Source of the DNA: Deinococcales bacterium
GTDB taxonomy: Bacteria > Deinococcota > Deinococci > Deinococcales > JAAFIG01
Length of the DNA stretch: 64,000 nucleotides
Direction of reading: 5' to 3'
Assembly: GCA_031414595.1 (NCBI GenBank)
Contig: JANNVX010000098.1
Coordinates: forward strand, 64,001 to 128,000
Positions 7,503 through 46,406 of the stretch are shown here, one piece after another; position 1 is the first letter of the stretch, and each line of letters opens with the position of its first letter. The notes under the pieces are model-generated. The model saw only the letters and a program-made list of their open reading frames with translations, was not told where the DNA came from and searched no databases. The position numbers and the translations under genes are program-made.

Positions 7503-7518
7503 TTTTGGAGGTTCAACC

Positions 7519-11456: not shown

Positions 11457-11483
11457 GTTTAAGATAACTCGAGAAGGAAAACG

Positions 11484-12496: not shown

Positions 12497-12548
12497 AGCC
12501 CAAGCAGAAAGCCAAAAGCCAAAGAGGTGAGTTAATGTCAGTTTTAGA
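12483..12548 (+). repeat. Cassette-junction repeat, copy 1 (type A)
   Basis: AAGGTGAAGCATAAAGCCCAAGCAGAAAGCCAAAAG...GAGGTGAGTTAATGTCAGTTTTAGA. Confidence 0.85.
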
Positions 12549-12729: not shown

Positions 12730-12737
12730 GGCAACCA

Positions 12738-13142: not shown

Positions 13143-13186
13143 AGCCCAAGCTCGAGCAGAAAGCCAAAAGGGAAGATACAGATGGG
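13134..13186 (+). repeat. Cassette-junction repeat, copy 2 (type B)
   Basis: CAAGCATGAAGCCCAAGCTCGAGCAGAAAGCCAAAAGGGAAGATACAGATGGG. Confidence 0.85.
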
Positions 13187-13203
13187 TTACTCGAGGTCAA
13201 GCC

Positions 13204-14837: not shown

Positions 14838-14845
14838 TATGATGT

Positions 14846-14906
14846 CAAGCATGAAGCCCAAGCTCAAGAAGAAAGCCAAAGAGGTGAGTTAAATGTCAGT
14901 TTTAGA
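14846..14906 (+). repeat. Cassette-junction repeat, copy 3 (type A)
   Basis: CAAGCATGAAGCCCAAGCTCAAGAAGAAAGCCAAAGAGGTGAGTTAAATGTCAGTTTTAGA. Confidence 0.85.
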
Positions 14907-15105
14907 TTATGTGCAACAAGCTAAAAATTATAGTTTAGACGAACGTCAAGAAATCATTGCCAGTCTCCAAGAACAAATTTTTGAGCAGCGACAAAAAACC
15001 ATGATAAAACCACGAAAAGATGGGGTGTTTGAAATTTGGTCTCCGACTGTAGATGCTGCTTCGATGGAAAAACTTCAAGAACGAGCAAGGCAGCGAAAAC
15101 TGTGA
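14893..15105 (+). CDS. Small partner protein of retropepsin pair 2
   Basis: MSVLDY...FEIWSP; stop overlaps the protease GTG. Confidence 0.7.
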   Translation: MSVLDYVQQAKNYSLDERQEIIASLQEQIFEQRQKTMIKPRKDGVFEIWSPTVDAASMEKLQERARQRKL

Positions 15106-15527
15106 GCCGAATAGCCCGATTTCCGTATGCAGAATCAGCTACCAATGTGCGTATGCCGTATATAGATGTGCTTATTGATTCTGGCGAAGTAGCAGTTCGA
15201 GTCAAAGCTCTACTCGATTCAGGCGCAATGGTCAATGTCATTCCAAAGCAAGTAGGAGAACGGCTAAACTTAAACTGGGAAAAAGGAGTAGATATTGCCC
15301 TAGGCGGTAACTTAGGCAAAGCACCTGCTCGAGCCTTTTATTTGAATTGTACAGTACAGGGTTTAGAAGTGACACAACTAGAACTTAATTGGTCAATGCT
15401 CGAGGATATTCCTGTTATTTTTGGGCAGTTTGATTTTTTCCAGAATTTCGATGTGTGTTTTTCGTACTCAGAAAATGAAATTAGTGTGCGACCTAGGCGA
15501 GTACAACAGAATCAAGGTGAAGCATGA
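15102..15527 (+). CDS. Retropepsin-like aspartyl protease, pair 2
   Basis: ALLDSGA; IFGQFDFFQNFDVCF; GTGA overlap start. Confidence 0.8.
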   Translation: MSRIARFPYAESATNVRMPYIDVLIDSGEVAVRVKALLDSGAMVNVIPKQVGERLNLNWEKGVDIALGGNLGKAPARAFYLNCTVQGLEVTQLELNWSMLEDIPVIFGQFDFFQNFDVCFSYSENEISVRPRRVQQNQGEA

Positions 15528-15571
15528 AGCCCAAGCTCGAGCAGAAAGCCAAAAGGGAAGACACAGATGGG
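15514..15571 (+). repeat. Cassette-junction repeat, copy 4 (type B)
   Basis: AAGGTGAAGCATGAAGCCCAAGCTCGAGCAGAAAGCCAAAAGGGAAGACACAGATGGG. Confidence 0.85.
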
Positions 15572-15668
15572 TGTTGTGTAAGGTGGGAAAAGCCCCTCCA
15601 CAAGTAGATGTACTCAAGAAATTACAAAAATCAGGGAACAGCTCAAACGTTTTCAGAAGGTTAAAATA

Positions 15669-16037
15669 ATGGTTGATAAAATGAGTCAGAACAGAAACGT
15701 AAAAAGTGCATATAGTGCAACTCGCATTTCAATTAATTATCAAACCTATGTGGGCGCTCGATATATCGGTTGTGGGCTGACATTGCATTATCTTCCAGAT
15801 TCAGAATTACAAGTCAGTTGTACAGCAGAATTTCCTGTAAATGACAACTACCGAATTAATGTTTGTAAAGCGATAGAAAAAACTTGTCAAGAAAAGTTGT
15901 TTGTAGGACAATTTATTGTTGAAGAAATAGATTTTCATCCTATCTACTCGAGCCAAAATGCTTTTGAAAACGCCGCTCAACAAGCTGTTTTAGCAATTCT
16001 GGGCTTACTTTCTTTTAAGCCTCTCACAATGGAGTGA
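15669..16037 (+). CDS. Hypothetical protein
   Basis: AT-rich ORF whose end carries the nuoG RBS. Confidence 0.5.
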   Translation: MVDKMSQNRNVKSAYSATRISINYQTYVGARYIGCGLTLHYLPDSELQVSCTAEFPVNDNYRINVCKAIEKTCQEKLFVGQFIVEEIDFHPIYSSQNAFENAAQQAVLAILGLLSFKPLTME

Positions 16038-16039
16038 CT

Positions 16040-18406
16040 ATGCCTAAAGTAATTGTGAATGATCGTCAAATCGAAGTCCCTAATGGTGCATCTGCTTTGG
16101 ATGCGGTTTTCCAAGCAGGTTTCGATGTGCCTTATTTCTGCTCTAACGAGTATCTCTCGCCGATTGGTGCGTGTCGAATGTGCCTTGTCGAAGCTGGCTC
16201 GCCGCGTAAAAATCCCGATGGTTCTTGGATTCTCGAGGATGGTGTTCCAAAACTGTTTTACTTCCCCGGTACAGTCGCAAGCTGCACACTGGCAACTTCC
16301 GAAGGCATGGTCATTAAAACCACCACTGAGGCGGCTGTCAAAGCCCAAGCTGGGATGATGGAATTCACGCTGATTAACCATCCGCTTGATTGCCCCACCT
16401 GCGATAAGGGTGGCGCGTGTGAACTCCAAGACCGAGCTTACGAGTATGGTTACGGCGAAGCGCGTTTTGAATTTACTCGCCGTCATGCCGATAAGCACCA
16501 TGCCCTGTCTGATTTTATTGTGCTGGATAAGGAACGCTGCATTCATTGCAAACGCTGTGTGCGTTACTTCGAGGAAATCCCGGGCGAAGAAGTGCTGGAT
16601 TTCATCGAACGCGGTGGGCATACTTTTATAGATTCGTACCAATCCGAAGACTTGGCGGGCGCAAAACTCGGTAATTTTAGCGGCAATATTAACGACCTCT
16701 GCCCTGTAGGAGCGCTGCTCGATAACGTCTCGAGATTCCGTGGGCGCAACTGGGAATATGACCGCACCCAAACCACCGATATGTCCAACGCCGATGGCTC
16801 GAGTATTTGGGTGGATGCTCGAACGGGGCGAATCGAACGCATTCGCGCCGCTCACAACAAAGAAGTTAATGAAATTTGGATTTCCGACGCACAGCGTTTT
16901 GGGCATGAATGGGTGGATGCCGATGCTCGAGTCCGCACGCCACTGATTCGTAAAAATGGCAAACTCGAGCCAGCCACCTTTGATGAAGCTGTTGAAGTGA
17001 TTGCAAAAGCCAATCTCGAGCCGAGCAAATTAGGTTTGTATACCAGTGCTGACATCACCCTCGAGGAAGGTGTGGCGCTTGAGTCGTTTGCTAAGACCAT
17101 TGCGACCATCAATGTAGACCATTTTCCGCGTTATAACAGCGCTCTGAGTGGTGTTGCTCGAGCCACCTTTACCGACCTTGCCAAAGCGGACGCAATTATC
17201 GTGATTGGTGCAGACTTGTACGAAGAATCTGGCACAGCCTACTTGCGAATCGAGGAGAGCTTGAAGGGTGTTATCACCTCCGACACGCAATTTAATCACG
17301 GTGCGCCTTTGGCAGATTTGCGTCTCAAAGAACGCATGGACAGAAAGCGCGGTAAACTGGCGGTCTTTGCACCAATTCCAGTGCAACAAATGAGCCACGC
17401 GGGAATCTCGAGCCTGTATGCAGTAGGTGCTGAACTCGAGCTTTTGGCGCAGATTAACCAAGCCAAATCGGGTAATGACTCGAGCAACGCCCAAGCCAAC
17501 GCTGCTGGCAAACTGCTCTCGAGTGCCAAAAACCCTGTGATTGTGCTGGGTAGCTTTGCGCTTGCCTCAGATGCCGAAAAAGTGTTGGCAGCCGCTAAGA
17601 AACTCGGTGGAAAAATCATGCCGATTCCAGCAGGTGCAAACGGCGCTGGACTCGAGACTTTAGAACTTGTACCAACCAAAAATGGGCGCAGTTTTGGGCA
17701 GTGGGACGGCTTAAAAGGCTTGTTCGTTTCGGGTAGTGCCATGACCAAGCGTCCAAAATCGCTCGAGATGTTGGTGGTTCACACCCATACCCTGACAGGC
17801 GCGGCACTCGAGGCGAATGTGGTGCTGCCAGCCCTGACTGCCTACGAGAAACGCGGCACAACCATGAATCTCGAGGGGCGCTTGTTGCCTTTGGCTGGGG
17901 CAGCCGTGGATGGTGGGCAAGGCGTGGACATGATTGGTGCGTTGCAAGTCTTATCCGATGCCATGAGTGCTAAACTCGAGATTCGTGGAACGCGCAGCGC
18001 CCAACGAATCCTGCAAGATAAATTTGGTCTCGAGATGGACAAAATTGCCGTTGAAGGTGCGTTTCCTGTGAAAACTGTCTCGAGTCGTTCAGCGCCAATT
18101 GTGCGCTCCACCACGGGCGAAACCGTACTGCTTGTGCCAAGAATGTGGTCTGAAAACATGCTCTCGAGCCAGCGCATCCGTGAAAGTGTCGGCGCAGATT
18201 ACTTAACTGTCAACTCGAGTGATGCCCAAAAAATGGGTGTGCGGGATGGCTTTACTTTAGAGCTAGAAGTCAACGGCAAACCTCGAGCCGTGACCGTTCG
18301 GATAGATGATGCGGTGTCTGCGCCAACGCTGCCCGCTTTGAATTCAGATTTGTCTGGGGCGCTTTCGAGTGTCAAAATAGCGGTCATGGCAGGAGGGGAT
18401 GATTAA
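16040..18406 (+). CDS. nuoG: NADH-quinone oxidoreductase subunit G
   Basis: [47 protein letters not shown]. Confidence 0.97.
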
Positions 18407-19048
18407 ATGAAAAAATGGTTACTGATACTGGTTTTACCCCTCTTTGCAGCTTGTTCAACTTTTGGTGGCGGCGAGCCTTGGGCGCGACAATTGCTTGCTC
18501 CGTCAGATAACACTTACCGTCAAGTCTGTGACTACACCCTGAGCAATCAACTTACTTCTAATCAACTCAGTAATTTTGGGGCAGCCGTCATTAAAACCGA
18601 GCAACTGGGGGATTTTAATGTTTTTAGTTCCACTTTCTTAGTGGGATTCACTTGCGGTATCCTCGAGCCACTTGCCAGAATCAATCCATCAGGAAAAGCC
18701 CAGTTGCTGCAAAGTAAAGAATTGGCGGATTTATCTCGCTTAGGGCGTTTTGTTGTTTCTACTCGAGTTCGGGTTAAAAACACCAGTCTGGAGAATAAAA
18801 AACTCACCCTAACTTTAGAAGATGAAAAGGGCGAAACCGTGCTGCAATTAAAACCAGAACCATTTATTGCGGGAACAGACGAAGAACCTCGCATTAGTTT
18901 TGCCCTGATTCCAGCCGATTACACCCCCACGCAATTACAAGCCTTTGAGAAAGTCCAAGCCATGTCTTTCAAAATTCAATTTGGAGAAAGCGAAGCCACT
19001 TTTCGTTTAACCCCCAAGGATTTTGGGGCTTTTCAGGTCAGTAAATAA
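18407..19048 (+). CDS. Hypothetical lipoprotein
   Basis: MKKWLL...LFAAC lipobox. Confidence 0.7.
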   Translation: MKKWLLILVLPLFAACSTFGGGEPWARQLLAPSDNTYRQVCDYTLSNQLTSNQLSNFGAAVIKTEQLGDFNVFSSTFLVGFTCGILEPLARINPSGKAQLLQSKELADLSRLGRFVVSTRVRVKNTSLENKKLTLTLEDEKGETVLQLKPEPFIAGTDEEPRISFALIPADYTPTQLQAFEKVQAMSFKIQFGESEATFRLTPKDFGAFQVSK

Positions 19049-19057
19049 ATTACGAGG

Positions 19058-19120
19058 TTCGGATTTTCGCGGGATACTTTGAGTGTCAAAATAGCAGTGA
19101 TGGCAGGAGGCGATGATTAG
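19058..19120 (+). repeat. Diverged duplicate of the nuoG 3' end (18343-18406)
   Basis: GAGTGTCAAAATAGCAGTGATGGCAGGAGGCGATGATTAG vs GAGTGTCAAAATAGCGGTCATGGCAGGAGGGGATGATTAA. Confidence 0.9.
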
Positions 19121-19122
19121 GT

Positions 19123-19308
19123 ATGACAATGAAAATGGTGTACTGGGAAGATGACGGTTGGCTGGTTGGTCGTTTAATTGATTATCCAAATGTGGCAACT
19201 CAAGCCGAAACCCTTGAAGAACTCGAGGAGAACATTAAGGATGCCTTTGAACTGATGTATCTCGAGGATGTACCAGCCAATCACAAGTTTAAGGAAGTTA
19301 CCATTTGA
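19123..19308 (+). CDS. hicB: HicB-family antitoxin (short)
   Basis: WEDDGWLVG...YPNVATQAETLEELEENIKDA. Confidence 0.85.
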   Translation: MTMKMVYWEDDGWLVGRLIDYPNVATQAETLEELEENIKDAFELMYLEDVPANHKFKEVTI

Positions 19309-19496
19309 AGCACCGTGACTTGATTCGCTTACTTGTTCAAAATGGTTGTTTTCTAAAACGAAACGGCAAAAAGCACGATTTGTACATCAATCCAGCAACA
19401 GGCGCATCATCGGCAGTTCCACGACATTCGGAAATCAAAGAGACAATGGCACGAATCATTCTGAAAGAATTAAGTATTGAAATAAAAAACAATTAG
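19305..19496 (+). CDS. hicA: HicA-family toxin
   Basis: LVQNGCFLKRNGKKHDLY.NP...VPRHSEI. Confidence 0.88.
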   Translation: MKHRDLIRLLVQNGCFLKRNGKKHDLYINPATGASSAVPRHSEIKETMARIILKELSIEIKNN

Positions 19497-19539
19497 GTGA
19501 TGCTCGAGATTCAAACGTTTTGCTAAAAGAGGTGAAGAA

Positions 19540-19761
19540 GTGAATCCAAATCCAATACGTCCGCCGCAGCAATTTCTTGTAGACCATCATGGAATAAAAA
19601 CCCATGTTATTTTGCCGCTCGAGGAATACGAGGAAATGATTGACCAGCTTCTTGATGCAAGGGATGCGGTCGAAATGCCAAAATTAGTCGTAGAAGCTCG
19701 AGCCAATAGTGAGAGGATAACGATTGAAGAACTTCGCAAACAATATGGACTCGAGCCATAA
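19540..19761 (+). CDS. Orphan antitoxin-like protein
   Basis: QFLVD..G.KTHVILPLEEYEEM...ITIEELRKQYGL pattern of RelE/ParE-partner antitoxins. Confidence 0.55.
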   Translation: MNPNPIRPPQQFLVDHHGIKTHVILPLEEYEEMIDQLLDARDAVEMPKLVVEARANSERITIEELRKQYGLEP

Positions 19762-19801
19762 GAGAAAAAATGAAGTCTATGAACGCTAATAAGGAGTACA
19801 A

Positions 19802-20926
19802 ATGCTGATTGAAATTTTAATTGTTTTACTAAAAGCCGTTGGTGTAGCCCTTGGGCTACTCACCACTTTCGCCTACATGACCCTAATCGAACGCCGTTTG
19901 CTTGGGCGTTTCCAAATGCGTCACGGTCCAAATCGGGTTGGTGGTCCGCTGGGTTTGGCTCAACCACTTGCCGATGCCATCAAAAGCATTTTCAAAGAGG
20001 ATGTCAACATCACCCTAGCCGATAAGTTCGTCTATTGGATTGCGCCACTTATCGCCATCACCATGTCCTTAACCGCTTTCGGAGCAATTCCAGCCGGTCC
20101 TGCTGGTAGTTTATTCGGCACTGACCCTTGGGTGTTTAACCTCGATATTGGCTTGCTGTTTATTCTTGGAACAACCAGCATGGGTGTCTACGGCATTTTT
20201 CTGGGTGGTTGGGCTTCGGGCAGCAAATACCCGCTTTTGGGTGGGCTTCGTGCCAGCGCCCAAGTGATTAGTTACGAACTCGGTATGGGGCTTAGTGTCT
20301 TGGGGCTACTGATTCTAGTGGGCAGCATGAACTTGCTCGAGATTGTCAAATGGCAAACCGAAAATGGCTGGTTAATTCTGTTTCAGTGTGTGGCTTTCAT
20401 GACTTTTTTTGTTTCCGCCTTTGCCGAAACCAACCGCTCACCGTTTGACCTTCCAGAAGCCGAACAAGAATTGGTGGCAGGGTTTCTAACCGAATACTCG
20501 AGCATCAAATGGGCATTGTTTCAAATGGCGGAGTACGTGGCAATGATTACGGCTTCGGCAGTCATGGCAACCTTGTTCTTTGGTGGCTACAAAGGACCAA
20601 ATCTCGAGATAGCTGGGTTTAACATTGGCAATATTCCATTTATTTGGTTGTACGCTAAAATTGGTGTGTTTTTGTTTGTGTTTATCTGGGTTCGGGCAAC
20701 GCTCCCTCGGATGAGGTACGACAAGCTGATGCAATTCGGTTGGAAGTTCTTGTTTCCTGTGGCACTAGGTAACACGCTTGTGGCAGCAGGTTTCAGAGGC
20801 TACTTCCCCAAAGATACCCCTTGGATTTTAGGTGGGATTAGCTTGGTTGCTCTCATTATTATTTTTGCTGTGACCTCGAGAAACCCTGTGCGACCCGCGC
20901 CTGCTCGAGCCAATGCTGGCGACTGA
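19802..20926 (+). CDS. nuoH: NADH-quinone oxidoreductase subunit H
   Basis: [46 protein letters not shown]. Confidence 0.97.
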
Positions 20927-20959
20927 TAGAATGATTTTGGAGGTGAATGAAATGAGTGT
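20901..20959 (+). repeat. nuoH 3'-end/RBS repeat, copy 1
   Basis: CTGCTCGAGCCAATGCTGGCGACTGATAGAATGATTTTGGAGGTGAATGAAATGAGTGT. Confidence 0.9.
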
Positions 20960-21164
20960 GATGCAAATGGTTGAAAGTGTAAGGGAGTTATCCATAGCCG
21001 AAATTGAACAATTACAAGATGCGCTCGAGAAAGAACGTTTGATGCAACTCAGTAAAATAGCTGCTAAACGTTGGGCTGGTAAGACTTTTGAATTGTGTTT
21101 CCCCTCGAGCAAAGATGTACCTGTCCACCCTTTTCAAGTTTTTCTCGAGAATCAAAAACCATGA
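20952..21164 (+). CDS. Small partner protein of retropepsin pair 3
   Basis: MSVMQM after GGAGGTG RBS; ATGA overlap with the protease. Confidence 0.7.
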   Translation: MSVMQMVESVRELSIAEIEQLQDALEKERLMQLSKIAAKRWAGKTFELCFPSSKDVPVHPFQVFLENQKP

Positions 21165-35547: not shown

Positions 35548-36003
35548 CTACGGTTTACCACGGTCACTCGAGTCAATAATAATCGTCACAGGACCGTCGT
35601 TCAGTAAACTAATTTTCATATCGGCTTGAAAAATCCCTTCTTGTACCTCGAGTTGCTGGTTACGTAGGGCTTCACAGAATTCTTTGTACAAACGCCGTCC
35701 ATCGTCGCTGCTGGCAGCTTCAATAAAACTTGGACGATTTCCGCCGCGAGTCTCGGCGTAGAGCGTAAATTGAGAGACTGCCAAAATCGCCCCACCAATC
35801 TGCTCGAGACTGAGGTTCATTTTACCAGCTTCGTCGTTGAAAACCCGTAACTTAGCGATTTTACGCGCTAAGTAATTGGCATCTTCCCTAGAATCGCTTT
35901 TTTTTACGCCAATCAGTACCAAAAAACCTTGTTCGATACTCGAGATGAGCTTATTGTCTACAGTCACACTGGCGCTAGTGACGCGCTGAATCACGGCTTT
36001 CAT
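35548..36003 (-). CDS. dtd: D-aminoacyl-tRNA deacylase
   Basis: MKAVIQRV, VSQFTLYA, NDGPVT. Confidence 0.95.
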   Translation of the reverse strand: MKAVIQRVTSASVTVDNKLISSIEQGFLVLIGVKKSDSREDANYLARKIAKLRVFNDEAGKMNLSLEQIGGAILAVSQFTLYAETRGGNRPSFIEAASSDDGRRLYKEFCEALRNQQLEVQEGIFQADMKISLLNDGPVTIIIDSSDRGKP

Positions 36004-36004
36004 C

Positions 36005-36277
36005 TCATGCCTCGGCTTTCTCGAGTGGTGAGTTAGCAAGCAGTGTACTGACGCTGCTGACCGCTTCGGTTAAGGTCTTGGCTTCTTCGGCGTTTAAGTT
36101 GCCTCGGGTTTTAATTGCCAGCATCTCGAGCAGGCGCAAACTGCGTTCGGCGGTTGTGCGGTTACGGCTGACACCATCGCGGTTCATACGGGCGGTCAGG
36201 GCATTGAATTGTCCTAAACTGGTTTCGGCGGCGGCTGTCAAACTATGGATTAAACCCAGAAAATCGGTGTTGGTCAT
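36005..36277 (-). CDS. DUF1844-like small protein
   Basis: FLGLIHSL...LEMLAIKTRGNL..EE. Confidence 0.7.
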   Translation of the reverse strand: MTNTDFLGLIHSLTAAAETSLGQFNALTARMNRDGVSRNRTTAERSLRLLEMLAIKTRGNLNAEEAKTLTEAVSSVSTLLANSPLEKAEA

Positions 36278-36367
36278 GAAAGGAGATTATCAAATTTTAC
36301 TGCCTCAAGTGCAAAACGAAACTTAAAGCACATCTTAACGTGTGCTTGCTTACGAAAATACGCTGGT

Positions 36368-37120
36368 TTGACCAGTACAGTGCTGGATGTGATTGCCCAA
36401 ACGCCTCTGAAGCCAAAATTTCAAATTCCTTTTCTGGTCTGGATGTACCTTGGGGTGATTGTTTTCTTGGGTGGATTGTACTTATTTGTCCCCAGTGTCC
36501 GTGTTTTTGTGACCCAATGCTTTGAAATTCTGGTCAGCAATGACCGTGGGCGTATCGAAACTTTTGTGGCGGGTTTTGGCTGGTGGGGACCGGTTTTAAT
36601 CATTGGCATGATGATTGCCCAAACGCTCTTAAGTGCCGTACCAATGATTCTGGTGTTGGTGGTGTCGGTACTGGCGTATGGTCCGATTTGGGGCGGCTTA
36701 CTCGGGTGGTGCGGCGCAATGATTGCAGCGATGGTTGGCTACGGGATTGCTCGAGTCTTTGGGGATACTTTACAAGATAAATTTGTGACCCCTAAAATTA
36801 GGGATATTATAGCCCGTAATGTTGCCAGATACGGCGCATTGGCAATTCTGGCGCTGCGTTTATCGCCACTGATTCCATCAGATGGTGTAAGTTTTGTGGC
36901 GGGTTTACTGCGAATGAACTTTGTGACTTTTCTGCTGGGAACGCTTAGCGGTGTTACCCCTTTGGTGATGGTCGTGGCGTATTTTGGCAGTGATTTTGAA
37001 CGCTTGACTGGTTTTGTTATTGGTGTGACGATTTTTAGTTTAACTGCTCTGATTTCATGGGTGATTTACGATGGGTTCATCAAACGCAAGAAGAATATCC
37101 AGCCTGTTGAATACAAATAA
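36368..37120 (+). CDS. TVP38/TMEM64 (DedA/SNARE-associated) membrane protein
   Basis: YGPIWGGLL, LRLSPLIP.D.VSFVAG. Confidence 0.85.
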   Translation: MTSTVLDVIAQTPLKPKFQIPFLVWMYLGVIVFLGGLYLFVPSVRVFVTQCFEILVSNDRGRIETFVAGFGWWGPVLIIGMMIAQTLLSAVPMILVLVVSVLAYGPIWGGLLGWCGAMIAAMVGYGIARVFGDTLQDKFVTPKIRDIIARNVARYGALAILALRLSPLIPSDGVSFVAGLLRMNFVTFLLGTLSGVTPLVMVVAYFGSDFERLTGFVIGVTIFSLTALISWVIYDGFIKRKKNIQPVEYK

Positions 37121-37136
37121 CGCTAAGTTTTTATGT

Positions 37137-40100
37137 TCATTCGCTCGAGAGTTGTGCCAATAATTTTGCTTGTTCTAAAACAGTATTTGTCGCTGCTTCT
37201 TGTTGCTCTGGTGGATAGCCATACTTACGCAGTACCCGTTTAACCAAACGTCGTAAATTTGCTTGGACTTGTTCACGTACCGCCCAATCAATCGTGGTGT
37301 TATTACGAACAGTTTGTGCTACTTCTAAGGCAATGGTTCGCAGCACATCATCTGCCATGATTTGGTTAGAATCACCGTCTTGCAAGGCATCATAAAAGGC
37401 AATTTCATCCTCGGCAAGCCCCAATGTCTCACTTCGGCTCTGCACATCACGGTAGGCTCGAGCCAAGGCAATTAATTCCTCAATCACTTGGGCGGTTTCT
37501 ATCGCCCGATTCTGATACTTTAACAACGCAGCCTCGAGTTTTTGCGAAAAAGCCTTGGATTGAACCAAATTGCGTTTAGACCCTGTTTTAACTTCATCTT
37601 TCATTAAACGCTCGAGCAGTTCCACGGCTAAATTACGTTGCGGCATATTCTGAACTTCTGCTAGAAATGATTCAGATAAAATACTGATGTCGGGTTTTTT
37701 TAAGCCAGCCGCCGCGAAAATATCAATCACGCCTTCGGGAGCAACCGCACGTTCAACCAAGCGCTGAATTGCATCGTGCAAATCTGAACTGGCAGCTTGA
37801 CTACTTGTTCCGACACGTTTCTCGAAGGTCGCACGCACGGTTTGAAAAAATACAATTTCTTGACGCAATACAAGAGCTTCCTCGAGCGGCACAGATAACG
37901 CAAAGGCTTTCGCCAGTTCAAGCGAGGCTTTAATCAGGCGCTCCTTACCTTTTACTCGGTCTTGAGCCAAAATAAAATCCTGAGCTTCGGGCAGAATTGC
38001 CACGCGGTCAGACGGTGAACCGCTCATAAAATCCGAGTAATCAAAACCATGAAATAAACCACGGCAAATCGAAAGTTTTTCTTGTAAAACCGCAAAAGCT
38101 GCTTCTTGGTCAAGGGTTGGTGCGCCCTGACCGCCGCTACTGGTGTACGTGACCAGTGCCTCACGCAAATTATTGGCTAAACCAAGGTAATCCACCACCA
38201 AACCACCGGGCTTATTACTAAAAACCCGATTGACTCGAGCGATTGCCTGCATTAACCCATGACCACGCATTGGTTTATCCAAGTACATCGTGTGCAAACA
38301 AGGCACATCAAAACCTGTCAGCCACATATCACGCACAATCACCAATTTAAGATTTGAACGATCATCCCGAAAATGCTCGGCAATCGCACGCTGTCGCGCT
38401 TTAGAACGAATATGCGGCTGCCAATTGTCAGGGTCAGAAGCTGCGCCTGTCATCACCACTTTAAGCACACCATCGGTATCGGTTGCGCCAAACCACGCAG
38501 GACGAAGTTTAATCAGTTCATTGTACAAATCCACACAAATACGGCGACTCATACAGACAATCATGCCTTTACCAAGCAGCACTTCTTGCCGAGCTTCAAA
38601 ATGCTGAACTAAATCGGCGGCAATTTGCTCGAGCCGTTTTTTCGTACCAATCAGCGCCTCGAGTTGCGCCCATTTGGATTTTAGTTTTTCTTTACTAAAA
38701 GCCTCTTCTCCTTCGGTTACTTCTTCAAAACCATCATCTAAACGCGGTTTTTCCGACTCGAGCAAATCGAGTTTGGCTAACCTGGACTCATAATAAATCG
38801 GCACAGTTGCGCCATCATCCACTGCCCGTTGCACATCATAAATGTCTATGTACTCACCAAAAATACCACGGGTATTCTTATCGGTACTTTCGACTGGTGT
38901 ACCCGTAAAACCAAGAAACGTGGCATTTGGTAAGGCATCGCGCACATTTTGGGCAAATCCATAACGCAAATCGCCTGTTTGCAAATCCACTTTGGCTTCA
39001 AACCCATACTGGCTACGATGCGCTTCATCGGCAATCACCACGATATTGCGCCGAGGCGACAATTGCGGGAATTTATCACCGCGTTCTTCGGGTAAAAATT
39101 TTTGAATCGTGGTAAAAACCACACCGCCCGCTTCACGCTCGAGCAACAGCCGTAAGTCTGCCCTGTTACCCGCTTGCACAGGGGTTTGACGCAGTAAATC
39201 CTTGCACCTCGAGAAAGTCCCAAACAGTTGGTCGTCTAAATCGTTACGGTCGGTTAAAATGACAATGGTTGGGCTTGCCAGTGCTGCGCTCTGCACCAAG
39301 CCACCCGCAAAGAACACCATCGTTAAACTCTTACCACTTCCTTGGGTATGCCAAACCACACCGCCCTTACCATCACCAATTGCGCTCGAAGCTGCCACGG
39401 TACTTTGCAAGGCTTTTTGCACCGCAAAAAACTGATGATACGCTGCAATTTTCTTATTAATACTCGAGCCGAAATCCTCGAACACAATAAAACCACGCAA
39501 AAACGCCAGTAAGCGCGAGCGTTCAAACACACCCTTAATCAAAGTCTCGAGCGATTCAGACAGCAACTCCGTACCAGACACGGTTTTCCACGGCACAAAA
39601 CGCTCCATTTCTGCGCCAACACAACCAAGCCGTGCCTGCACCCCATCGGAAATGACCAGCAGGGCATTAAAAATAAACAACCGACTAATCTGGTTCTGAT
39701 AGGTTCTAAGCTGCTGATAGGCATTTTCGATGGTGGCTTTACTGTCCGCCGCGTTTTTAAGTTCAATTACGGCAATTGGTAAACCGTTCAGGTAAACCAC
39801 AACATCTGGGCGGCGGTTAATCTGCCCATCTATCACCGTTAATTGATTGACCACCAACCAATTGTTGGCATCTGGATTTTGCCAATCTACCAGCCGCACC
39901 AAAAAACCACGCAGCCCACCATCTTGCAGCACCTCGGTTTCGACACCCTCGGCAAGCAACTTATGAAACGCCCGATTGTTTTGCATTAATGCCGGAAATT
40001 CAGGCGTAGACACACGCCGCACGGCTTCCTCGAGCGCCAAATCTGGGGCAGTTGGATTCAAACGCCGCAACGCATCCCGCAAACGCCCAAGCAGTAATAC

Positions 40101-40232
40101 TTCACGAAAAGATCCGCGTTCGGCACATTTTTCTTCTGGCGCAATACTCGGACCAAATTCGTACTCGTAACCAAGACCGCGCAACCACTCGAGCGAGGCT
40201 TGTTCAACAGTATTTTCGTTAAAAGAAGGCAT
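37137..40232 (-). CDS. hsdR: Type I restriction enzyme subunit R
   Basis: [47 protein letters not shown]. Confidence 0.96.
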
Positions 40233-40342
40233 TAAAAAAGATTATCGCACATTTGCAGCACAAGACAGATTTTGCTATAATTTTTGTAGTCTCATCTACC
40301 AAGCTGTAGAAAGAGCGTTCGGGGTCGTCCAAAAGGGCGACC

Positions 40343-40609
40343 CTAGTTTTTAGAATTCTCGAGTTGATGTGCCTTCGTGAGCGCAAACTGACTCTCGAGA
40401 TTAAGCCAAAAGACGGCTGGCACACGCAAAGCCACCTCTAATTGCAAAGCGGTTTCTGGTGTAATGGACTTTGTACCCTGAATAATTTCGTTAATTGCTG
40501 TGGCAGGTCTGCCCATGCGCCGTGCCAAATCAGCTTGGGTCATACCAAAGCCCTCTAAAATCTCAGCAATGTACTTACCTGGAGCAATAGCCAAATCCGA
40601 GTACAACAC
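40343..40609 (-). CDS. higA: HigA-family addiction module antidote (HTH), no adjacent toxin
   Basis: APGKYIAE.LE..GMTQADLARRMG...INEIIQG...ITPETALQLE...FWLNLE; GTG start after GAGGAGGTG. Confidence 0.8.
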   Translation of the reverse strand: MLYSDLAIAPGKYIAEILEGFGMTQADLARRMGRPATAINEIIQGTKSITPETALQLEVALRVPAVFWLNLESQFALTKAHQLENSKN

Positions 40610-40613
40610 GTTA

Positions 40614-40688
40614 TCACCTCCTCGAGTCAAACCAAACGATGAACATCCAATTCCCCAGAAAGCAATTTGGGAAGCAAAAAATCTCGAG
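40614..40688 (-). repeat. Diverged duplicate of the hsdS 3' end (41506-41580)
   Basis: Encodes RDFLLPKLLSGELDVHRLV* vs RDSLLPKLLSGELDVGNLV* in hsdS. Confidence 0.92.
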
Positions 40689-40745
40689 CGTAGCTTGTTC
40701 AACAGTATTTTCGTCAAAAGAAGGCATTGCAAAGATTATCGCACA
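40683..40745 (-). repeat. Diverged duplicate of the hsdR 5' end (40188-40251)
   Basis: Encodes MPSFDENTVEQATLE vs [15 protein letters not shown], plus shared upstream sequence. Confidence 0.92.
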
Positions 40746-40754
40746 AAAGAAAAA

Positions 40755-41372
40755 TCACCATGTTGTTGGCTTCAGAATTAGAGTACCTAAACCACCCACA
40801 ACAGAATTCGGCAATTGAGCCTTAGATAACTTATCAAGGGGTAACGTAGCGTTCTTATCAGCAGCACTTCGTAATTCTCGAGCCGCCCCACGCATTTTAT
40901 CTCGAGCAGGAACGTAGACCGTTATTTTTATACTCGGAAAACGCTGTTTAATCAACCGTATTGTTGGCACAAGATCAGAATCACCACTGACCAAAACCAT
41001 ACGATCACACAAACCCCTGTACGCATCATCTAACATTCGCAAAGCAATGTTGACATCCGTACCTTTTTCCTCTGGCATCTGAAATTCTTTAAGCCCACCA
41101 AAAGAACAACCTGAAACACGACACTTCACTTTTTTAGTTTTGAATAAACCATATTCAATTTGCAACTTCTGAGAAGCAGCTTCAAGCGCTTGCAAGTAAG
41201 TTGTTTGGTCAGGAGTACCTGTTCGAGCCGTAAAATACCAAACTTGCTGAATGATGTCATCTTGTCGAATCAAACTAAATAATTTCTCGAGGTCAAGCCA
41301 TTTTTCAGACGAACCTTTTAACGCTCCGTAGTACAAGTTGAAACCATCAATATAAATAATACTTCGATTCAT
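40755..41372 (-). CDS. NYN (LabA/DUF88, PIN-like) domain nuclease
   Basis: YIDGFNLYYG, EEKGTDVNIA, LVSGDSDLVP. Confidence 0.92.
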   Translation of the reverse strand: MNRSIIYIDGFNLYYGALKGSSEKWLDLEKLFSLIRQDDIIQQVWYFTARTGTPDQTTYLQALEAASQKLQIEYGLFKTKKVKCRVSGCSFGGLKEFQMPEEKGTDVNIALRMLDDAYRGLCDRMVLVSGDSDLVPTIRLIKQRFPSIKITVYVPARDKMRGAARELRSAADKNATLPLDKLSKAQLPNSVVGGLGTLILKPTTW

Positions 41373-41397
41373 TCTGTTATGTCCTAAATCAACTTAT

Positions 41398-41424
41398 AAA
41401 AAAAAGGCAGCCACTGGAGCTGCC
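41398..41424 (-). terminator. Intrinsic terminator in the NYN gene leader
   Basis: Minus strand GGCAGC-TCCAGTG-GCTGCC followed by T8. Confidence 0.8.
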
Positions 41425-41448
41425 CAACCGGTTGCCCGGGGAGTTGTG
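41398..41448 (-). ncRNA. Candidate ~50-nt small RNA / attenuator upstream of the NYN gene
   Basis: Lies between a consensus promoter and the terminator; contains a CCGG-GCAA-CCGG GNRA hairpin. Confidence 0.45.
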
Positions 41449-41453
41449 ACAAG

Positions 41454-41482
41454 AATCTACAAGAAGCATCTTGATTTGTCAA
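41454..41482 (-). promoter_or_regulatory. Sigma70 promoter for the NYN leader
   Basis: Minus strand TTGACA-17 nt-TAGATT; -35 flanked by inverted repeat AGCATCTTG/CAAGATGCT (41465-41496). Confidence 0.7.
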
Positions 41483-41518
41483 CTAACCAAGATGCTCACA
41501 AATGCTCACCTCCTCGAG

Positions 41519-42730
41519 TTAAACCAAATTGCCAACATCCAATTCCCCAGAAAGCAACTTAGGAAGCAATGAATCTCGAGTCGTAGAAAGTCGTACAGAC
41601 TCCAAGCGATTTTCAAGGGACTTCTCATATAAAGGCTGAACAGCTTCTGAAAACCTAAATGCTATCTCTGGTGACGGAACAATGATTTCTGCTTGTAGTA
41701 CATCGTTAGGTCTTGCACGTTGATGACTTTTGGATGTTCCTGTAACTTTTGACGCAAAGATACCTGTGAAAAAATCAGAATTTAAGATGCCATGGACAAA
41801 GAATTTTACCTGCAAATCTCGAGGCATCACAACTAAAAATTCTGTTGAGGCAATAGCGCGACGTTCAGGGTGAATAACAGTCAACCAAACTCGAGGGGTT
41901 TCTGGATTTAATTTCGATACAAGAATAGAATCTGACTGAACCATAAATTTATTACTAAGAATAGACACGCCTAAGTCTTGCATTGGTATTTGTCCAGCAT
42001 CAAAAGCAGGTAAACTAAAATGATCAAAAAGCTCATCTGGAAAAGCCTGCGGGGTCAGTGTTGCTTTTGACAATGTAATAAACTTCTCAAGTGTTCCAAC
42101 CTCCCAGCCTTCTGGAATTTCGCCCATGCTCGAGCTAACAAAAGCACTTGGAAATAACGCTGCCGTAGCCGCATCCACACCCTTTGGCTCGAGACCAAGC
42201 GCTTTGGCTCTGACCACATCAAAATTCACAAACCAAGATTTGAAAAGCGTTTGTGCCATTGCCTCGAGTGTTGCGTTGGTACGGCGGTTCAGTTCGATTT
42301 TATCATCTAAAGCCCCGAGGATGAAAGCGATTTTCTTTTGGGTCTCGAGGGGTGGGAGGTAAACTTTATAAAGATGGACATGATTCCGATTGATTCCAGG
42401 AACGCTGCTTTTGTCATTGAATTGTTGGAAGTCCAATGTTTTCAAAAGATAGTAAACAAAGTGTGGTTCGTTACCATGAAAATCTTTCACCCATAAAGTT
42501 GTGTTCAAAGGAAAGAAATCTTCTTCAATAAAAAATACTTGACCAATTGTTCCGTATCGTCCTGTAACAACACCAGGAGCAGTAACTCGAGCTTCATTAT
42601 GTGTATCTGTTTTACCAGAAGAAGAAATTATCGGAATATTCCCCAACTTTCGATTCTGCTGTGGTAAATCAAAACCTCTTTGTAAAGTCGCAACTTCACC
42701 AAGTGTTATCTCGAGCCAATCCGCATTCAT
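41519..42730 (-). CDS. hsdS: Type I restriction enzyme specificity subunit
   Basis: PPLETQKKIA.IL.ALDDKIELN, EIPEGWEV, RDSLLPKLLSGE. Confidence 0.95.
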   Translation of the reverse strand: MNADWLEITLGEVATLQRGFDLPQQNRKLGNIPIISSSGKTDTHNEARVTAPGVVTGRYGTIGQVFFIEEDFFPLNTTLWVKDFHGNEPHFVYYLLKTLDFQQFNDKSSVPGINRNHVHLYKVYLPPLETQKKIAFILGALDDKIELNRRTNATLEAMAQTLFKSWFVNFDVVRAKALGLEPKGVDAATAALFPSAFVSSSMGEIPEGWEVGTLEKFITLSKATLTPQAFPDELFDHFSLPAFDAGQIPMQDLGVSILSNKFMVQSDSILVSKLNPETPRVWLTVIHPERRAIASTEFLVVMPRDLQVKFFVHGILNSDFFTGIFASKVTGTSKSHQRARPNDVLQAEIIVPSPEIAFRFSEAVQPLYEKSLENRLESVRLSTTRDSLLPKLLSGELDVGNLV

Positions 42731-42763
42731 GTCTTCGCCTTGTCTCGAGCAGGTAAAAAATAA

Positions 42764-43468
42764 TTACCGCACATGAAAATCCACTCCCAATTTTACCAAT
42801 GCTGCTTCAACACCAATTACACCCCGCGTCTCGAGCCATTTTGTGGGGTTGTTGCGGATGTACCGCGCAATATTCCCAAACATCAGGTCATCACGCACAA
42901 TGACCTCATAATAATTACGTTGCCAAAAACGAACCCCAGAACGCCCCAAATGTTTATTTACCCCGATTGCCGAAATGGATTTGAACGCCCGTATAATTTC
43001 CGATAACGATGCGTGTTTTGTTTTGGTTGTCGTACTGGTTGGGGCGCTGGTTGGGGCGCTGCTTGCCGCGCCCTGCCCTTGACCCTGCCCTTTTAATCCC
43101 GCGTTAATGGGCGCAGCGAGCAGCGCCCCTACTACGGGATTTTGGTCATGGTCACGAACGGGATTTTGGTCATGGTCGTGTATGGGATTTTTGGGATTTG
43201 CCGGGTTGATGATAATAATGCCGTGTACATGGTCGGGCATGATCATAAATTCGTCGGTTTGGATATTAAATCGGTTTGGTAATTCGTTCCATGTGTTTTG
43301 GATAATTTGTCCTATTTCGGTTGGGTTTGCTGTGTTGTTTTGTATGATACTCAAAGTATCGTCGCGGTGTTCGGTACAAATCGTAATGAAGTACGCGCCA
43401 CTCGAGGTGTAGTCGTAGTTTTTTAGTCGAATACTTTGTCGGTGGCGCTTATTTGGGTTGTAGGGCAT
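42764..43468 (-). mobile_element. REP-associated tyrosine transposase (RAYT, IS200/Y1 HUH family)
   Basis: RQSIRLKNYDY...YFITICT, IMPDHVHGII (HUH), FKSIS, FWQRNYYE..VR, YIRNNP. Confidence 0.9.
43050..43132. repeat. REP doublet inside the RAYT coding sequence
   Basis: GTTGGGGCGCTGCTTGCCGCGCCC ... GGGCGCAGCGAGCAGCGCCCCTAC. Confidence 0.85.
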
Positions 43469-45023
43469 AGCCTAGTTTCTCCAAGTTGGTTTTTATTTGT
43501 TGCTCGAGTATTGCGCTTTGTGCAAATTGGCTGTGTAAGTCTTGGGTTAGTCGTTGCATTTTCTGCTCGAAAGGTTCGCTGTCTGGTTCTTGGGCTTCGA
43601 TGCCAACGTACCGTCCGGGGGTTAGGACGTATCCGTGGGTTTTGATTTCTTCTAGGTTGGCACTTTTGCAGTATCCGGCTTGGTCGGTGTATTGCCCGTG
43701 TCCGTCGCCGCGCCAGTTGTGGTAGGTGCTGGCGATTTGGGCAATGTCTGTGTCGGTAAAGTTGCGGTTGACCCTTGTTTCCATAAACCCAAGTTTTCGG
43801 GCATCTATAAAAAGGGTATGACCGCTTCGGTCACGCAAGGAGCGCCCCTCGAGTCCTCGTCCGTTTTTCTTGTTACGGGCGATAAACCATAAAGCTACGG
43901 GGATTTGAGTGGTGTAAAAAAGCTGTCCGGGCATGGAAACAATGCAGTCCACAAGGTCGGCTTCAATAATTCTCTGGCGGATGTCACCTTCGCCGCTCGA
44001 GTTACTGCTGAGCGAACCGTTAGCAAGCACAAATCCTGCAATCCCATTTGGAGCAAGGTGATAAATCATATGCTGCATCCATGCGTAATTGGCGTTGCTG
44101 TTAGGAGGTGTACCGTGTTGCCAGCGTCCGTCTTCTCGCAAGTTTTCGCCGCCCCAATCAGAAATGTTAAAGGGTGGGTTCGCCAGAATATAATCGGCGC
44201 GTAAATCTGGGTGCTGGTTGTTGTGGAAAGTATCGGCGTTTTGTGTGCCTAGATTTGCCTCGAGTCCGCGAATGGCAAGGTTCATTTTGGCAAGTTTCCA
44301 AGTGGTGGGGTTGCTTTCTTGTCCGTAAATACTGACATCGCCAATTTTTCCACCGTGGGCTTCGACGAACTTTTCGCTACTGACAAACATTCCGCCCGAG
44401 CCACAAGCAGGGTCATAGATTCGTCCTTTGTAGGGTGCAAGCATTTCAACAATCACCCGTACTACGCTGGTGGGGGTGTAGAATTCTCCACCGAGTTTAC
44501 CTTCGGCACTGGCAAATTTGGATAGAAAGTATTCGTAGACTCGCCCAAGCATATCTTTGCTCGAGTTTTTCTGATTTTGCCCAGCTTCGGCACTTGCCAT
44601 TTTCAGGTCACTAAATTTGTCTATCAGTTCACCGAGTTTGGTTTTGTCTAGGGTTGGTCGGGCAAAATCTTTGGGTAGTACACCTTTTAACTGCTTGGGA
44701 TTTTCGTTCTCGAGCAATTCCATGGCTTGGTCTATCAGTGTTCCAATTTTAGAATCCTTAGCGTTTTCTTGTAAGTAAATCCATCGTGCTTTGGGCGGAA
44801 CCCAAAAAATGCCTTCGGCGGCGTATTCGTCTCGGTCTTCGGCGGCTTCTATGCCAAATTCTTGTTTGATGCGCTCAAACTGTCCTGTGAAGGCATCTGA
44901 AATGTATTTTAGGAAAATGAGTCCGAGTACGATGTGTTTGTATTCGGCTGCGTCCATATGACCGCGTAGTTTATCGGCGGCTGCCCAAAGAATACTTTCA
45001 AACTGCCTGTTGGTGGTTTCCAT
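43449..45023 (-). CDS. hsdM: Type I restriction-modification methyltransferase subunit
   Basis: [33 protein letters not shown]. Confidence 0.96.
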
Positions 45024-45042
45024 GTGTAGGCATTATGACAGA

Positions 45043-45666
45043 TTAAAACAGCTTGGTTTGCTCAATCTCGAGCGAGACTTCTTTTTTATCGGGCAGTTGC
45101 TCTAATTTCTCTTTGACTGCCTTTATATCTTGCCATGTCAGCCATTTAGGTCCACCAGTAGTTCGTACTGCGTTGCGTAATAAATAGGCTGGGTGAAACA
45201 TCGGCATTAGGGGTATCGGGATGCTGAGTCTCTTAAACTCCGTCCAAATCCCTCGGGTTTTGGTGATGCCTAGGGTTGTCCCTAGCGCCCATTGGGTCGG
45301 AACATTGCCAAGCGTGATGATGATTTTCGGCTGAATAAGCCGAATCTGCTCGAGTAACCAATCTTCACAAGCAATGATTTCGTCTGGTTCTGGGTTACGG
45401 TTGTTTGGTGGTCGGCATTTGACTACATTGGCGATGTACACTTCTTCTCGAGCAATGCCGACTGCTGCTAATATCTGGTCTAAGAGTTGCCCAGCTTGTC
45501 CAACAAATGGCTTTCCTATGCGGTCTTCTTCTTGTCCAGGTCCTTCGCCAATCAGAATAAGCCGCGCATTTAGATTACCGACACCAAAAACAACTTGTGT
45601 GCGGGTGTTTGCTAGTTTACAAGCGGTGCAAGTGCTGCAAGTATTCTTTAACTCCTCGAGATTCAT
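45043..45666 (-). CDS. Uracil-DNA glycosylase family 4
   Basis: C..C.L, GEGPG, NVVKCRPP.NR.P, FHPAYLLR. Confidence 0.92.
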   Translation of the reverse strand: MNLEELKNTCSTCTACKLANTRTQVVFGVGNLNARLILIGEGPGQEEDRIGKPFVGQAGQLLDQILAAVGIAREEVYIANVVKCRPPNNRNPEPDEIIACEDWLLEQIRLIQPKIIITLGNVPTQWALGTTLGITKTRGIWTEFKRLSIPIPLMPMFHPAYLLRNAVRTTGGPKWLTWQDIKAVKEKLEQLPDKKEVSLEIEQTKLF

Positions 45667-46406
45667 CGGTTAATCTCCTCGATTTGCACAATTTCCAAAT
45701 GCCAAAGTTTAAGTTGCTTGGCTCGAGCAATGGCTTTTTTGGTTTCTCTGGCACGAATTGCCTTCATAAAATTTGGGTCATGGGCAAGGCTGGTTAAGAC
45801 CCAGTAATCGCCCCAGATTTCTAAGCCCCATTCTTGGCGCATGACTTGACTGGCGGTTTGCCAAATATGTTCGCCCATTTCCTCGAGCGGCGCGATATAG
45901 TGGCTTGTGCCGTCGGTGACAGAATTGGCTTTAATTTGGCGCTGAAATGCTTGAGTTTCTGGTTTGCTCATCTGCTCGAGTGTACCAACTTTACAATAAT
46001 GCGAATCAAAGGCACTGTAGGTGTCGCGGCATCGGGCTGGACGGGCTTCATAGGCAGTACAGTTACCCGTGGTTTGGTCTAGGAGCGGACAAAAACCGAC
46101 CTGTGTGCGGTGCTGCCAAAAATAGGTATCCCAACTCGAGGCATTCTGGGCATTTTTAATCACTCGGGTTGCGTGTGACTGCATGGCTACCAGTTGTGCT
46201 GGACTGAGTAAATGAGCCGTATACACAGCTTCGGCAAGACTGATTTGAATCGGGAAATTACAGCAATTGGCGCATCCAGCCCGGCAAAAGACTTGCCCGC
46301 CTTGGCTGGTAAACCCTTTTATCCACTTGTTAGATTGGGTTTCGTAACTTGCATAAGCCTTGGCGAGGCTCGAGATGATAGGTTGGTCAGAAGCGCTGAG
46401 TGACAT
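45663..46406 (-). CDS. YkgJ family cysteine-cluster protein
   Basis: CRAGCANCC, CPLLD...C.AYEARPARCR. Confidence 0.8.
   Translation of the reverse strand: MSLSASDQPIISSLAKAYASYETQSNKWIKGFTSQGGQVFCRAGCANCCNFPIQISLAEAVYTAHLLSPAQLVAMQSHATRVIKNAQNASSWDTYFWQHRTQVGFCPLLDQTTGNCTAYEARPARCRDTYSAFDSHYCKVGTLEQMSKPETQAFQRQIKANSVTDGTSHYIAPLEEMGEHIWQTASQVMRQEWGLEIWGDYWVLTSLAHDPNFMKAIRARETKKAIARAKQLKLWHLEIVQIEEINR

Follow-up and report, generated by a model that had tools for sequence, protein, structure and literature searches.

In Escherichia coli, the type I restriction-modification (R-M) genes of the prr locus enclose prrC, a gene for an anticodon nuclease, and rlo genes are found in the hsd loci of Campylobacter. 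We know of no duplicated hsdS tail or hsdR head reported for these prr and rlo loci. Phase-variable type I systems carry extra partial hsdS copies together with a recombinase, an arrangement known as a shufflon. Nested accessory genes in restriction and immune operons are now used to discover defence systems. Under the term "guilt by embedding", a preprint describes defence genes embedded in multi-gene systems, with HEC-01 to HEC-09 in Hma and other cases in type I R-M, BREX and DISARM (10.1101/2024.01.29.577857), and embedded systems also appear in a Vibrio cholerae paper. In the literature searchable here we found no account of how embedded defence genes get into operons. We analyzed a stretch of 64,000 nucleotides (nt) from a Deinococcales bacterium (assembly GCA_031414595.1, contig JANNVX010000098.1, positions 64,001 to 128,000 of the forward strand), hereafter the window. 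In a type I R-M operon of this window, the interval between hsdS and hsdR holds two different cargo genes in tandem, each with its own copy of the hsdS tail and of the hsdR head, and the two units meet at a single CTCGAG hexamer.

The window locus is like the prr and rlo loci in having an accessory nuclease gene between the hsd genes of a type I system, and like the shufflons in having partial hsdS sequence downstream of the full gene. Unlike in the shufflons, the partial sequence is only a 19-codon tail in direct orientation, without a recognition domain, and no tyrosine or serine recombinase is present among the six open reading frames (ORFs) at the locus. A phase-variable hsdS shufflon was rejected on these grounds, the copy being a direct repeat of the conserved tail only. 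An integron array was rejected as well; the integrase scan, which covered the six ORFs at the locus, gave no integrase, and the repeats copy neighbouring gene ends instead of a common site. With the embedded defence genes the locus shares a full-length HEC-09 match inside a type I R-M operon, and relatives of the operon have other defence-type genes at the same place. In contrast to the embedding preprint, whose main text does not contain the word "recombination" (10.1101/2024.01.29.577857), the present locus keeps both flanks of each unit, and because of this the joining event is readable. That restriction operons harbour embedded cargo was known before; the novelty lies in a stacking event whose scar can still be read and in a quantitative null for the role of the hexamer.

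HsdM, HsdS and HsdR were all found with their expected Pfam domains, which establishes the operon as a type I R-M system (Table 1). A sequence-only reading of the window had placed CTCGAG at 41575-41580, 40683-40688 and 40188-40193 and had ordered the genes on the minus strand as hsdS, a tail-NYN-head unit, a tail-higA-head unit and the rest of hsdR. Both the sites and the order were borne out by the sequence and the ORF list. The same reading took the duplicated flanks for diverged alleles standing head to tail, and alignments and translations agree with it. The identity of the two tails becomes 70/81 if a 1-nt gap is allowed, and the longest perfect runs in the alignments are 24 nt between the tails and 22 nt between the heads. 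The orphan head encodes the peptide MPSFDENTVEQATLE, from which the live hsdR head differs, and the duplicates are set apart by silent CCT/CCC and AAG/AAA changes and by the stop codons TAA/TGA. When the second tail is read in the hsdS phase, it is intact and open, ending in RDFLLPKLLSGELDVHRLV and the stop, and its differences from the first tail are mostly silent or conservative. The second tail therefore comes from a working hsdS and not from decayed sequence, and both flank copies represent functional alleles rather than decayed copies. At the seam, the hexamer is the only continuous sequence that the hsdR head and the hsdS tail share, as the sequence-only reading also held; a 5-nt match (CTACG) just upstream is offset by one base. 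The hexamer is read in phase 0 as Leu-Glu in hsdR but in phase 2 in hsdS, and the fusion of the first head to the second tail is therefore out of frame. The stop of the resulting chimeric ORF lies 5 nt ahead of the GTG start of the second cargo gene. Each unit also holds internal CTCGAG sites that were left unused.

Table 1. Coordinates of the stacked hsdS-hsdR interval, its operon and the other loci discussed (window positions unless a locus is named)
Feature	Position	Strand	Evidence or remark
hsdS, specificity subunit	41519..42730	-	Pfam Methylase_S 1.3e-19
Tail 1 (A1): CTCGAG, last 19 hsdS codons, stop TAA, second CTCGAG, ribosome-binding stretch	41506..41580	-	
Structured spacer 3' of hsdS: promoter-like site, 13-bp hairpin, terminator-like hairpin followed by T run	41405..41500	-	
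Cargo 1, NYN-domain protein of HEC-09 family	40755..41372	-	Pfam NYN 2.4e-14; PADLOC HEC-09 1.5e-45
Head 1 (B1), orphan: 18 nt upstream of hsdR and hsdR codons 1-15, CTCGAG at end	40683..40745	-	58/64 identical to head 2
Seam CTCGAG: hsdR codons 14-15 (phase 0) and hsdS-tail start (phase 2) at once	40683..40688		
Tail 2 (A2), second hsdS-tail allele: stop TGA, CTCGAG, ribosome-binding stretch	40614..40688	-	65/75 identical to tail 1
Chimeric 37-codon ORF, hsdR head 1 running out of frame into tail 2	40614..40727	-	
Cargo 2, HigA-family helix-turn-helix protein, 88 amino acids, GTG start	40343..40609	-	NCBIfam TIGR02607; Pfam HTH_3
Head 2 (B2): same 18 nt upstream and codons 1-15, running on into intact hsdR	40188..40251	-	
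hsdR, restriction subunit, intact, 1031 amino acids	37137..40232	-	Pfam HSDR_N, SWI2_SNF2, ResIII, T1RH-like_C
IS200-like / REP-associated tyrosine transposase gene between hsdM and hsdS	42764..43468	-	Pfam Y1_Tnp 1e-9
hsdM, type I R-M methyltransferase subunit	43449..45023	-	Pfam N6_Mtase 2.2e-108, HsdM_N 2.4e-27
Whole R-M operon as 7.95-kb accessory island	37093..45042		
nuoC	4079-4684	+	
nuoF	8097-9455	+	
2-kb R-M cassette: 324-amino-acid ORF without Pfam match and N6_N4 DNA methyltransferase	9455-11473		absent from G005
Junction-element copies between nuoF and nuoG	12483, 13128, 14842, 15513		
nuoG	16034-18406	+	
hsdR-head remnants in locus L030	1835-1921, 2100-2339, 3422-3562		upstream of intact hsdR, interleaved with Fic-like, ImmA + DUF4411 and Abi_C genes

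The stack is present in a second lineage. The genome of a congener, G001, also contains it: over 40152-41569 (1,418 nt) the two sequences differ at a single position. Over the next 352 nt, in hsdR, they differ at 28, and their second recognition domains of hsdS are non-homologous. A search of sequencing runs gave 8 runs from 2 studies, and the contigs of 4 of these runs were compared with the stack. Two runs of the second study, X6 and X7, each contain a 422-nt contig over 40579-41000 that bridges the seam with 0 differences, so the absence of spanning reads, which the sequence-only reading had named as the outcome that would overturn it, was not what we found. One run of the possible source study covers the whole stretch and is not independent evidence. 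An assembler could in principle have chained two strain alleles from a metagenome, and two facts fit such an artefact: the genome is a 120-contig draft, and run X5 of the second study has no bridging contig over 40661-40679, although a 19-nt hole of this kind proves nothing. Since only 6 nt are shared at the seam, a k-mer graph presumably cannot make the joint without reads. The flanks of the stack in G001 differ by 5-8%, and the contigs that bridge the seam come from a different study. With the stack in G001 and the seam bridged in X6 and X7, we rejected an assembly artefact and give it practically no credence. No joint that skips either cargo unit was seen in the 4 runs, where the contigs drop rare variants.

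To see what the hsdS tail represents, the hsdS genes of G000, G001 and G003 were aligned. They are alike in the central conserved region, unrelated in the second recognition domain (about 42099-41590 in the window), and alike again from about 10 nt before the tail CTCGAG to the stop. This re-convergence identifies the tail as the C-terminal conserved region of HsdS, and the tail is the only stretch in which hsdS alleles of different specificity can still pair. The G001 tail matches the first tail of the window at 60/62 positions, and the other two carry letters of the second tail. The hybrid tail of G001 indicates a crossover inside the tail.

On balance, and with moderate confidence, we favour the view that the stack is an inherited scar, left when two homeologous hsdS-cargo-hsdR intervals were joined once, illegitimately, at 6 bp of microhomology, probably with homology in the flanks as an anchor and with CTCGAG in a passive part. 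One parent interval would have carried the NYN (HEC-09-type) gene and the other the HigA-family gene, each with its own hsdS-tail and hsdR-head flanks, and either may have been the resident one. DNA of a congener's operon would have entered the cell, presumably by transformation, and one of its sides would have undergone normal homologous pairing, in the body of hsdR or else in hsdM/hsdS. The other end would have been joined out of register at 6 bp, with the CTCGAG of hsdR codons 14-15 connected to the CTCGAG at the start of the hsdS tail. Because these two ends share only the hexamer, a two-unit stack needs one such out-of-register joint from an hsdR head to an hsdS tail. The product would keep hsdS, both cargo genes and hsdR intact, and between the cargo genes an orphan hsdR head would run out of frame into an equally orphaned hsdS tail. 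The use of CTCGAG would be passive because it is by far the commonest hexamer of the genome. Afterwards the whole stack would have passed from one species-level lineage to another as a single block, through ordinary homologous recombination.

The process proposed here would be homology-facilitated illegitimate recombination, which is RecA-dependent, joins DNA at 3-10 bp and is described for three naturally transformable species, S. pneumoniae, A. baylyi and P. stutzeri (PMC6382021). The seam falls within that range, with 6 bp in common and nothing else continuous. An anchor is available on either side; the hsdR alleles of congeners are 86-97% identical over kilobases. In contrast to the experimental cases, the window locus is a natural fossil, and its seam lies in a gene head, so that the outcome was not a deletion but a second copy of head and tail. 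The genome encodes ComEC and DprA, and the same families occur in 10 and 11 of 14 control genomes, respectively, which makes them weak support for uptake.

Of the two routes to the stack that the sequence-only reading had offered, we judge most likely the one that combines a homologous side with a CTCGAG joint at the other end. In the alternative route, a CTCGAG-to-CTCGAG segment of a relative closed into a circle at the hexamer and integrated by a single crossover in the short tail or head homology. The topology fits exactly: the circle would have closed at the seam, and the crossover would have duplicated its targets, the tails and the heads. Recombination between such direct repeats could also run in reverse and release either unit in circular form. 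It counts against a circle that transforming DNA enters the cell linear and single-stranded. Closure at CTCGAG also calls for a cut-and-ligate activity; a search with the Pfam XhoI model (PF04555) gave no match in the 94%-complete genome, and none in the 14 control genomes either. The homology for the crossover is just 75 nt at 87% or 64 nt at 91%, and the perfect runs of 24 and 22 nt fall below the minimal efficient processing segment of 25-35 bp (PMC6382021). These short perfect runs disfavour the circle, and we regard it as unlikely.

The relatives of the locus were then compared. A search of 41 genomes with the 1.6-kb stretch as query gave 8 matches including the genome of the window itself, and of 19 family genomes searched, only 4 have this hsdR. 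G005 and G006 lack the operon: at the site of the 7.95-kb island their flanking genes lie 23-25 nt apart. In G003 the operon lies in another genomic context. Along window 35700-46400, zero-mismatch blocks shared with G001 (37100-37699, 40282-41569 and 42500-42699) stand among blocks that are 5-10% divergent. This mosaic indicates frequent short-tract homologous exchange between species-level lineages. Frequent block replacement at the locus would also suit a local origin, in which unequal exchange between sister chromosomes at two CTCGAGs duplicated the interval and a foreign allele with other cargo later overwrote one copy; the same seam would arise through the same 6-bp microhomology. Such a history takes two rare events instead of one. 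Because the tail and the head of both units differ, the overwrite must have ended within the 64-75-nt flanks on both sides, and a tandem duplicate with identical cargo was seen in none of the genomes searched. We therefore consider a local origin very unlikely.

The single joint at 6 bp that we favour has to be seen against the abundance of CTCGAG. The hexamer occurs 23,235 times in the 4.49 Mb of the genome against 972 expected from base composition, a 24-fold excess, which corresponds to about 5,200 copies per Mb or one per 190 bp. In the window there are 372 copies against 8.2 expected from shuffles, and 69% of all TCGA tetramers of the genome lie inside CTCGAG. This is an over-representation of the highly iterated palindrome (HIP) type. 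Like HIP1 (GCGATCGC) and the other cyanobacterial iterated palindromes (PMC4390886), CTCGAG is hugely over-represented and also occurs in repeats of clustered regularly interspaced short palindromic repeat (CRISPR) arrays; HIP1 is found inside a Synechocystis CRISPR repeat (PMC6604393). Unlike HIP1, it has another sequence of 6 nt with 67% G+C, a higher density and another host lineage, the Deinococcales. CTCGAG does not appear in the main text of the 2015 HIP survey (PMC4390886), and no report of an iterated CTCGAG palindrome was found in the literature searched, which did not cover subscription journals. CRISPR-like arrays with CTCGAG in their repeats were seen at C11:14145-16149, C101:43-1656 and C82:70753-71722. 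Several other 6-nt palindromes are nearly absent from the genome (GGGCCC 0, TGCGCA 2, CGATCG 3, GACGTC 3 and GGCGCC 3 copies, with about 800-970 expected for each), which suggests many restriction systems.

It has been reported that the HIP1 palindrome affects transformation and recombination (10.1101/2024.09.10.611283). CTCGAG could be an active joint, cut and rejoined by a restriction-type enzyme plus ligase or by a site-specific system so that CTCGAG-bounded fragments are pasted into CTCGAG sites and cargo is stacked, or it could be a preferred pairing or nicking site in DNA uptake that drives integrase-free stacking into the hsd and nuo operons. The seam lies exactly on the hexamer, as such a process predicts. 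When a 375-nt recipient range at the locus was compared with three proxy donor ranges, 54-69 hexamer pairs were shared, and 6-8 of them were CTCGAG. Between neighbouring 300-nt segments genome-wide, it contributes 6.7% of the shared hexamers, 11.4% of the 7-mers and 16% of the 8-mers. Alignment of 48.7 kb to G001 and G005 gave 43 indels of at least 3 nt, of which 5 touch CTCGAG, against a random expectation of 3.2 ± 1.7 (P(5 or more) = 0.22). The 12 larger structural differences have 24 boundaries on the window side; CTCGAG is flush with 1 of these (1.5 expected) and within 10 nt of 4 (3.7 expected), and neither end of the operon island, 37093 or 45042, is on the hexamer. A random paste would also be unlikely to reach the homologous site of a homologous locus, and the internal CTCGAG sites of each unit stayed out of use.

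The ends of short local direct repeats were examined as well, in 117 pairs from which CRISPR arrays and loci with more than 5 pairs had been dropped, with an internal offset control; a version with all dispersed repeats was confounded by repeat families and BLAST end effects. Of the 234 ends, 19 (8.1%) are flush with CTCGAG in both copies. This excess would suit an active joint, but 8% is the size predicted for joints that need roughly 6-8 matching bases, that is, the passive expectation. Interleaved direct-repeat pairs with abutting copies, the pattern left by a gene-head-to-gene-tail chimera at the hsd locus, were searched for in the whole genome at two sensitivities, and only this locus and one tandem-repeat region in C17 were found. 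The broader claim of the sequence-only reading that the iterated palindrome serves as a recombination joint is not supported; it rests on one event, and neither the share of CTCGAG among shared hexamers nor the indels and structural variants lend it an excess. Most likely CTCGAG is a joint only passively, as the commonest short match. The share of the hexamer at the seam is about what its abundance predicts, which argues against reading such coincidences as function, provides a null for future surveys and is relevant to the long-standing debate on the function of highly iterated palindromes. Genome-wide, 4,371 high-scoring segment pairs of dispersed repeats of 60-200 nt point to an abundant small repeat family.

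Cargo stacking in this lineage is not confined to the hsd operon. The nuo operon (window 3000-21000, plus strand; nuoC, D, E, F, G and H by Pfam) is broken up by accessory cassettes, with two Uma2 genes between nuoD and nuoE, R-M, PIN and other genes between nuoF and nuoG, and an ORF of 213 amino acids between nuoG and nuoH. The cassettes vary among G000, G001 and G005 and include two methyltransferase-containing pairs and a PIN pair. The cassettes between nuoF and nuoG have at their 3' ends a junction element of about 36-40 nt that is specific to this locus; the window and G005 each carry 4 copies of it, and G001 carries 2. When one G001 segment with the element was compared with G000 by BLAST, only this locus matched. 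CTCGAG lies in the middle of the element and not at its edge, and among the 10 copies it reads CTCAAG in 2 and is missing in one. At window 12506, a copy of the element differs from that of G005 by a 6-nt indel that is exactly CTCGAG. The nuo array resembles an integrase-free cassette array. Stacking of cargo inside operons is a habit of the lineage, and its common feature is a repeated junction sequence, not the hexamer itself. These nuo arrays with their locus-specific junction repeat may be of more general interest than the hsd stack.

For the active joint the nuo operon cuts both ways. The 2-kb type II R-M cassette that is absent from G005 has CTCGAG followed by a ribosome-binding stretch at both ends; in G001 the nuoF junction is the same but lacks the hexamer, and in the junction element the hexamer sits inside and is altered or missing in 3/10 copies. 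Taking these observations together with the indel, structural-variant and repeat-end counts, we hold that an active role of CTCGAG, whether as a cut-and-rejoined site or as a preferred pairing or nicking site, is quite unlikely. It keeps this small probability because flush repeat ends are about 4 times enriched, one R-M cassette has the hexamer at either end and arrays occur in core operons. If an active joint did exist, the hsd seam would be the freshest footprint of integrase-free cassette stacking in this Deinococcales family.

Several points weigh against the single passive joint at 6 bp that we favour. Natural transformation is a presumption for this uncultured lineage. An allele with only the NYN gene or only the HigA-family gene, which the sequence-only reading had proposed to look for in other strains, was found neither among the 8 matching genomes of the 41 searched nor in the 19 family genomes or a metagenome scan, and without such parental alleles the identity of donor and recipient and the side of the anchor are our conjecture. 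The metagenome scan gave 10 loci with a best identity of 65%, and a contig scan of genomes gave one close relative and otherwise matches of about 50% identity. Other breakpoints lie near the hexamer: the boundary of the recognition-domain swap in hsdS is 10 nt from a CTCGAG, and an apparent, likely deletion of about 850 nt that removed an ImmA domain from the second cargo gene begins 3 nt past a CTCGAG. As for the block in common with G001, one of its ends misses the outer CTCGAG by about 5 nt and the other by up to about 36 nt. Finally, the preference of repeat ends for CTCGAG is real: offset 0 has 11 ends and offset 1 has 7, against an average of about 2.6 for each offset from 4 to 18. We read it as microhomology, and an active process would look similar.

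Different genomes carry different cargo between hsdS and hsdR, which makes the interval a hot spot and agrees with what is known of embedded defence genes. G003 has a SIR2-like gene between hsdS and hsdR, G014 has a longer gene for a helix-turn-helix (HTH) plus ImmA/IrrE protein with a PD-Lambda-2_B-like match directly upstream of hsdR, and more distant metagenome relatives carry AAA_21 + DUF4276 and Fic genes in the interval. Among 72 distant hsdR-relative loci with enough upstream sequence, one (L030) has three different hsdR-head remnants. It belongs to a metagenome-assembled genome of the alphaproteobacterial Hyphomicrobiales and has 1 CTCGAG in 15 kb; stacking with head remnants therefore occurs without the hexamer. 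In the window, the two successive cargo units with their flanks make the joint readable base by base, with every functional gene kept.

The two cargo genes differ in type. Residues 1-205 of the NYN protein align to positions 1-202 of 203 of the PADLOC model PDLC04163 (HEC-09), and its gene, between hsdS and hsdR, is embedded in a multi-gene defence system as HEC-09 genes are. HEC-09 is described as an Hma-embedded candidate, a putative RNase of NYN type that gave no protection against the phages tested (10.1101/2024.01.29.577857). A relative of the NYN gene with 66% DNA identity lies convergent to another hsdS in G008. The second cargo protein scores 62.9 bits against the HigA model TIGR02607, whose cut-off is 47.7. 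No gene for a HigB/RelE-type toxin was found beside it in the ORF list, where the chimeric ORF lies upstream and 110 nt, then hsdR, lie downstream; a true higB-higA pair is present elsewhere, in G017. The G014 homologue of the HigA-like gene is fused to an ImmA/IrrE-type peptidase domain. The window gene stops (40343-40360) where the G014 homologue enters that domain (compared with L006:60-100 and 930-1000). Because the longer G014 gene sits directly upstream of hsdR with a homologous spacer, the window gene may be a truncated form of the HTH-plus-ImmA/IrrE gene.

In the rest of the operon, the Methylase_S match covers only the first recognition domain of HsdS, and the three-way alignment marks the second domain as a homology break relative to G001 and G003. 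The spacer after hsdS folds with -43.2 kcal/mol (z -2.57) and has, on the minus strand, a promoter-like site at 41482-41454 (10/12 matches) and a terminator-like site at 41425-41405. Rfam gave no match in 40100-41700. The terminator-like site and the hairpins after hsdS fit the idea that hsdR needs the promoter-like stretch that is copied with each head; the 18 nt upstream of hsdR we take to be the promoter of a leaderless message, as presumed from Deinococcus transcripts. With the promoter-like site and hairpins within about 60 nt, a small transcript between hsdS and the NYN gene could exist. The RAYT-like transposase gene embedded between hsdM and hsdS also matches NCBIfam REP_Tyr_transpos (3e-17), under the cut-off of the model, and this gene contains 12-nt and about 69-nt tandem repeats (window 43035 and 43133) that vary in copy number between G000 and G001.

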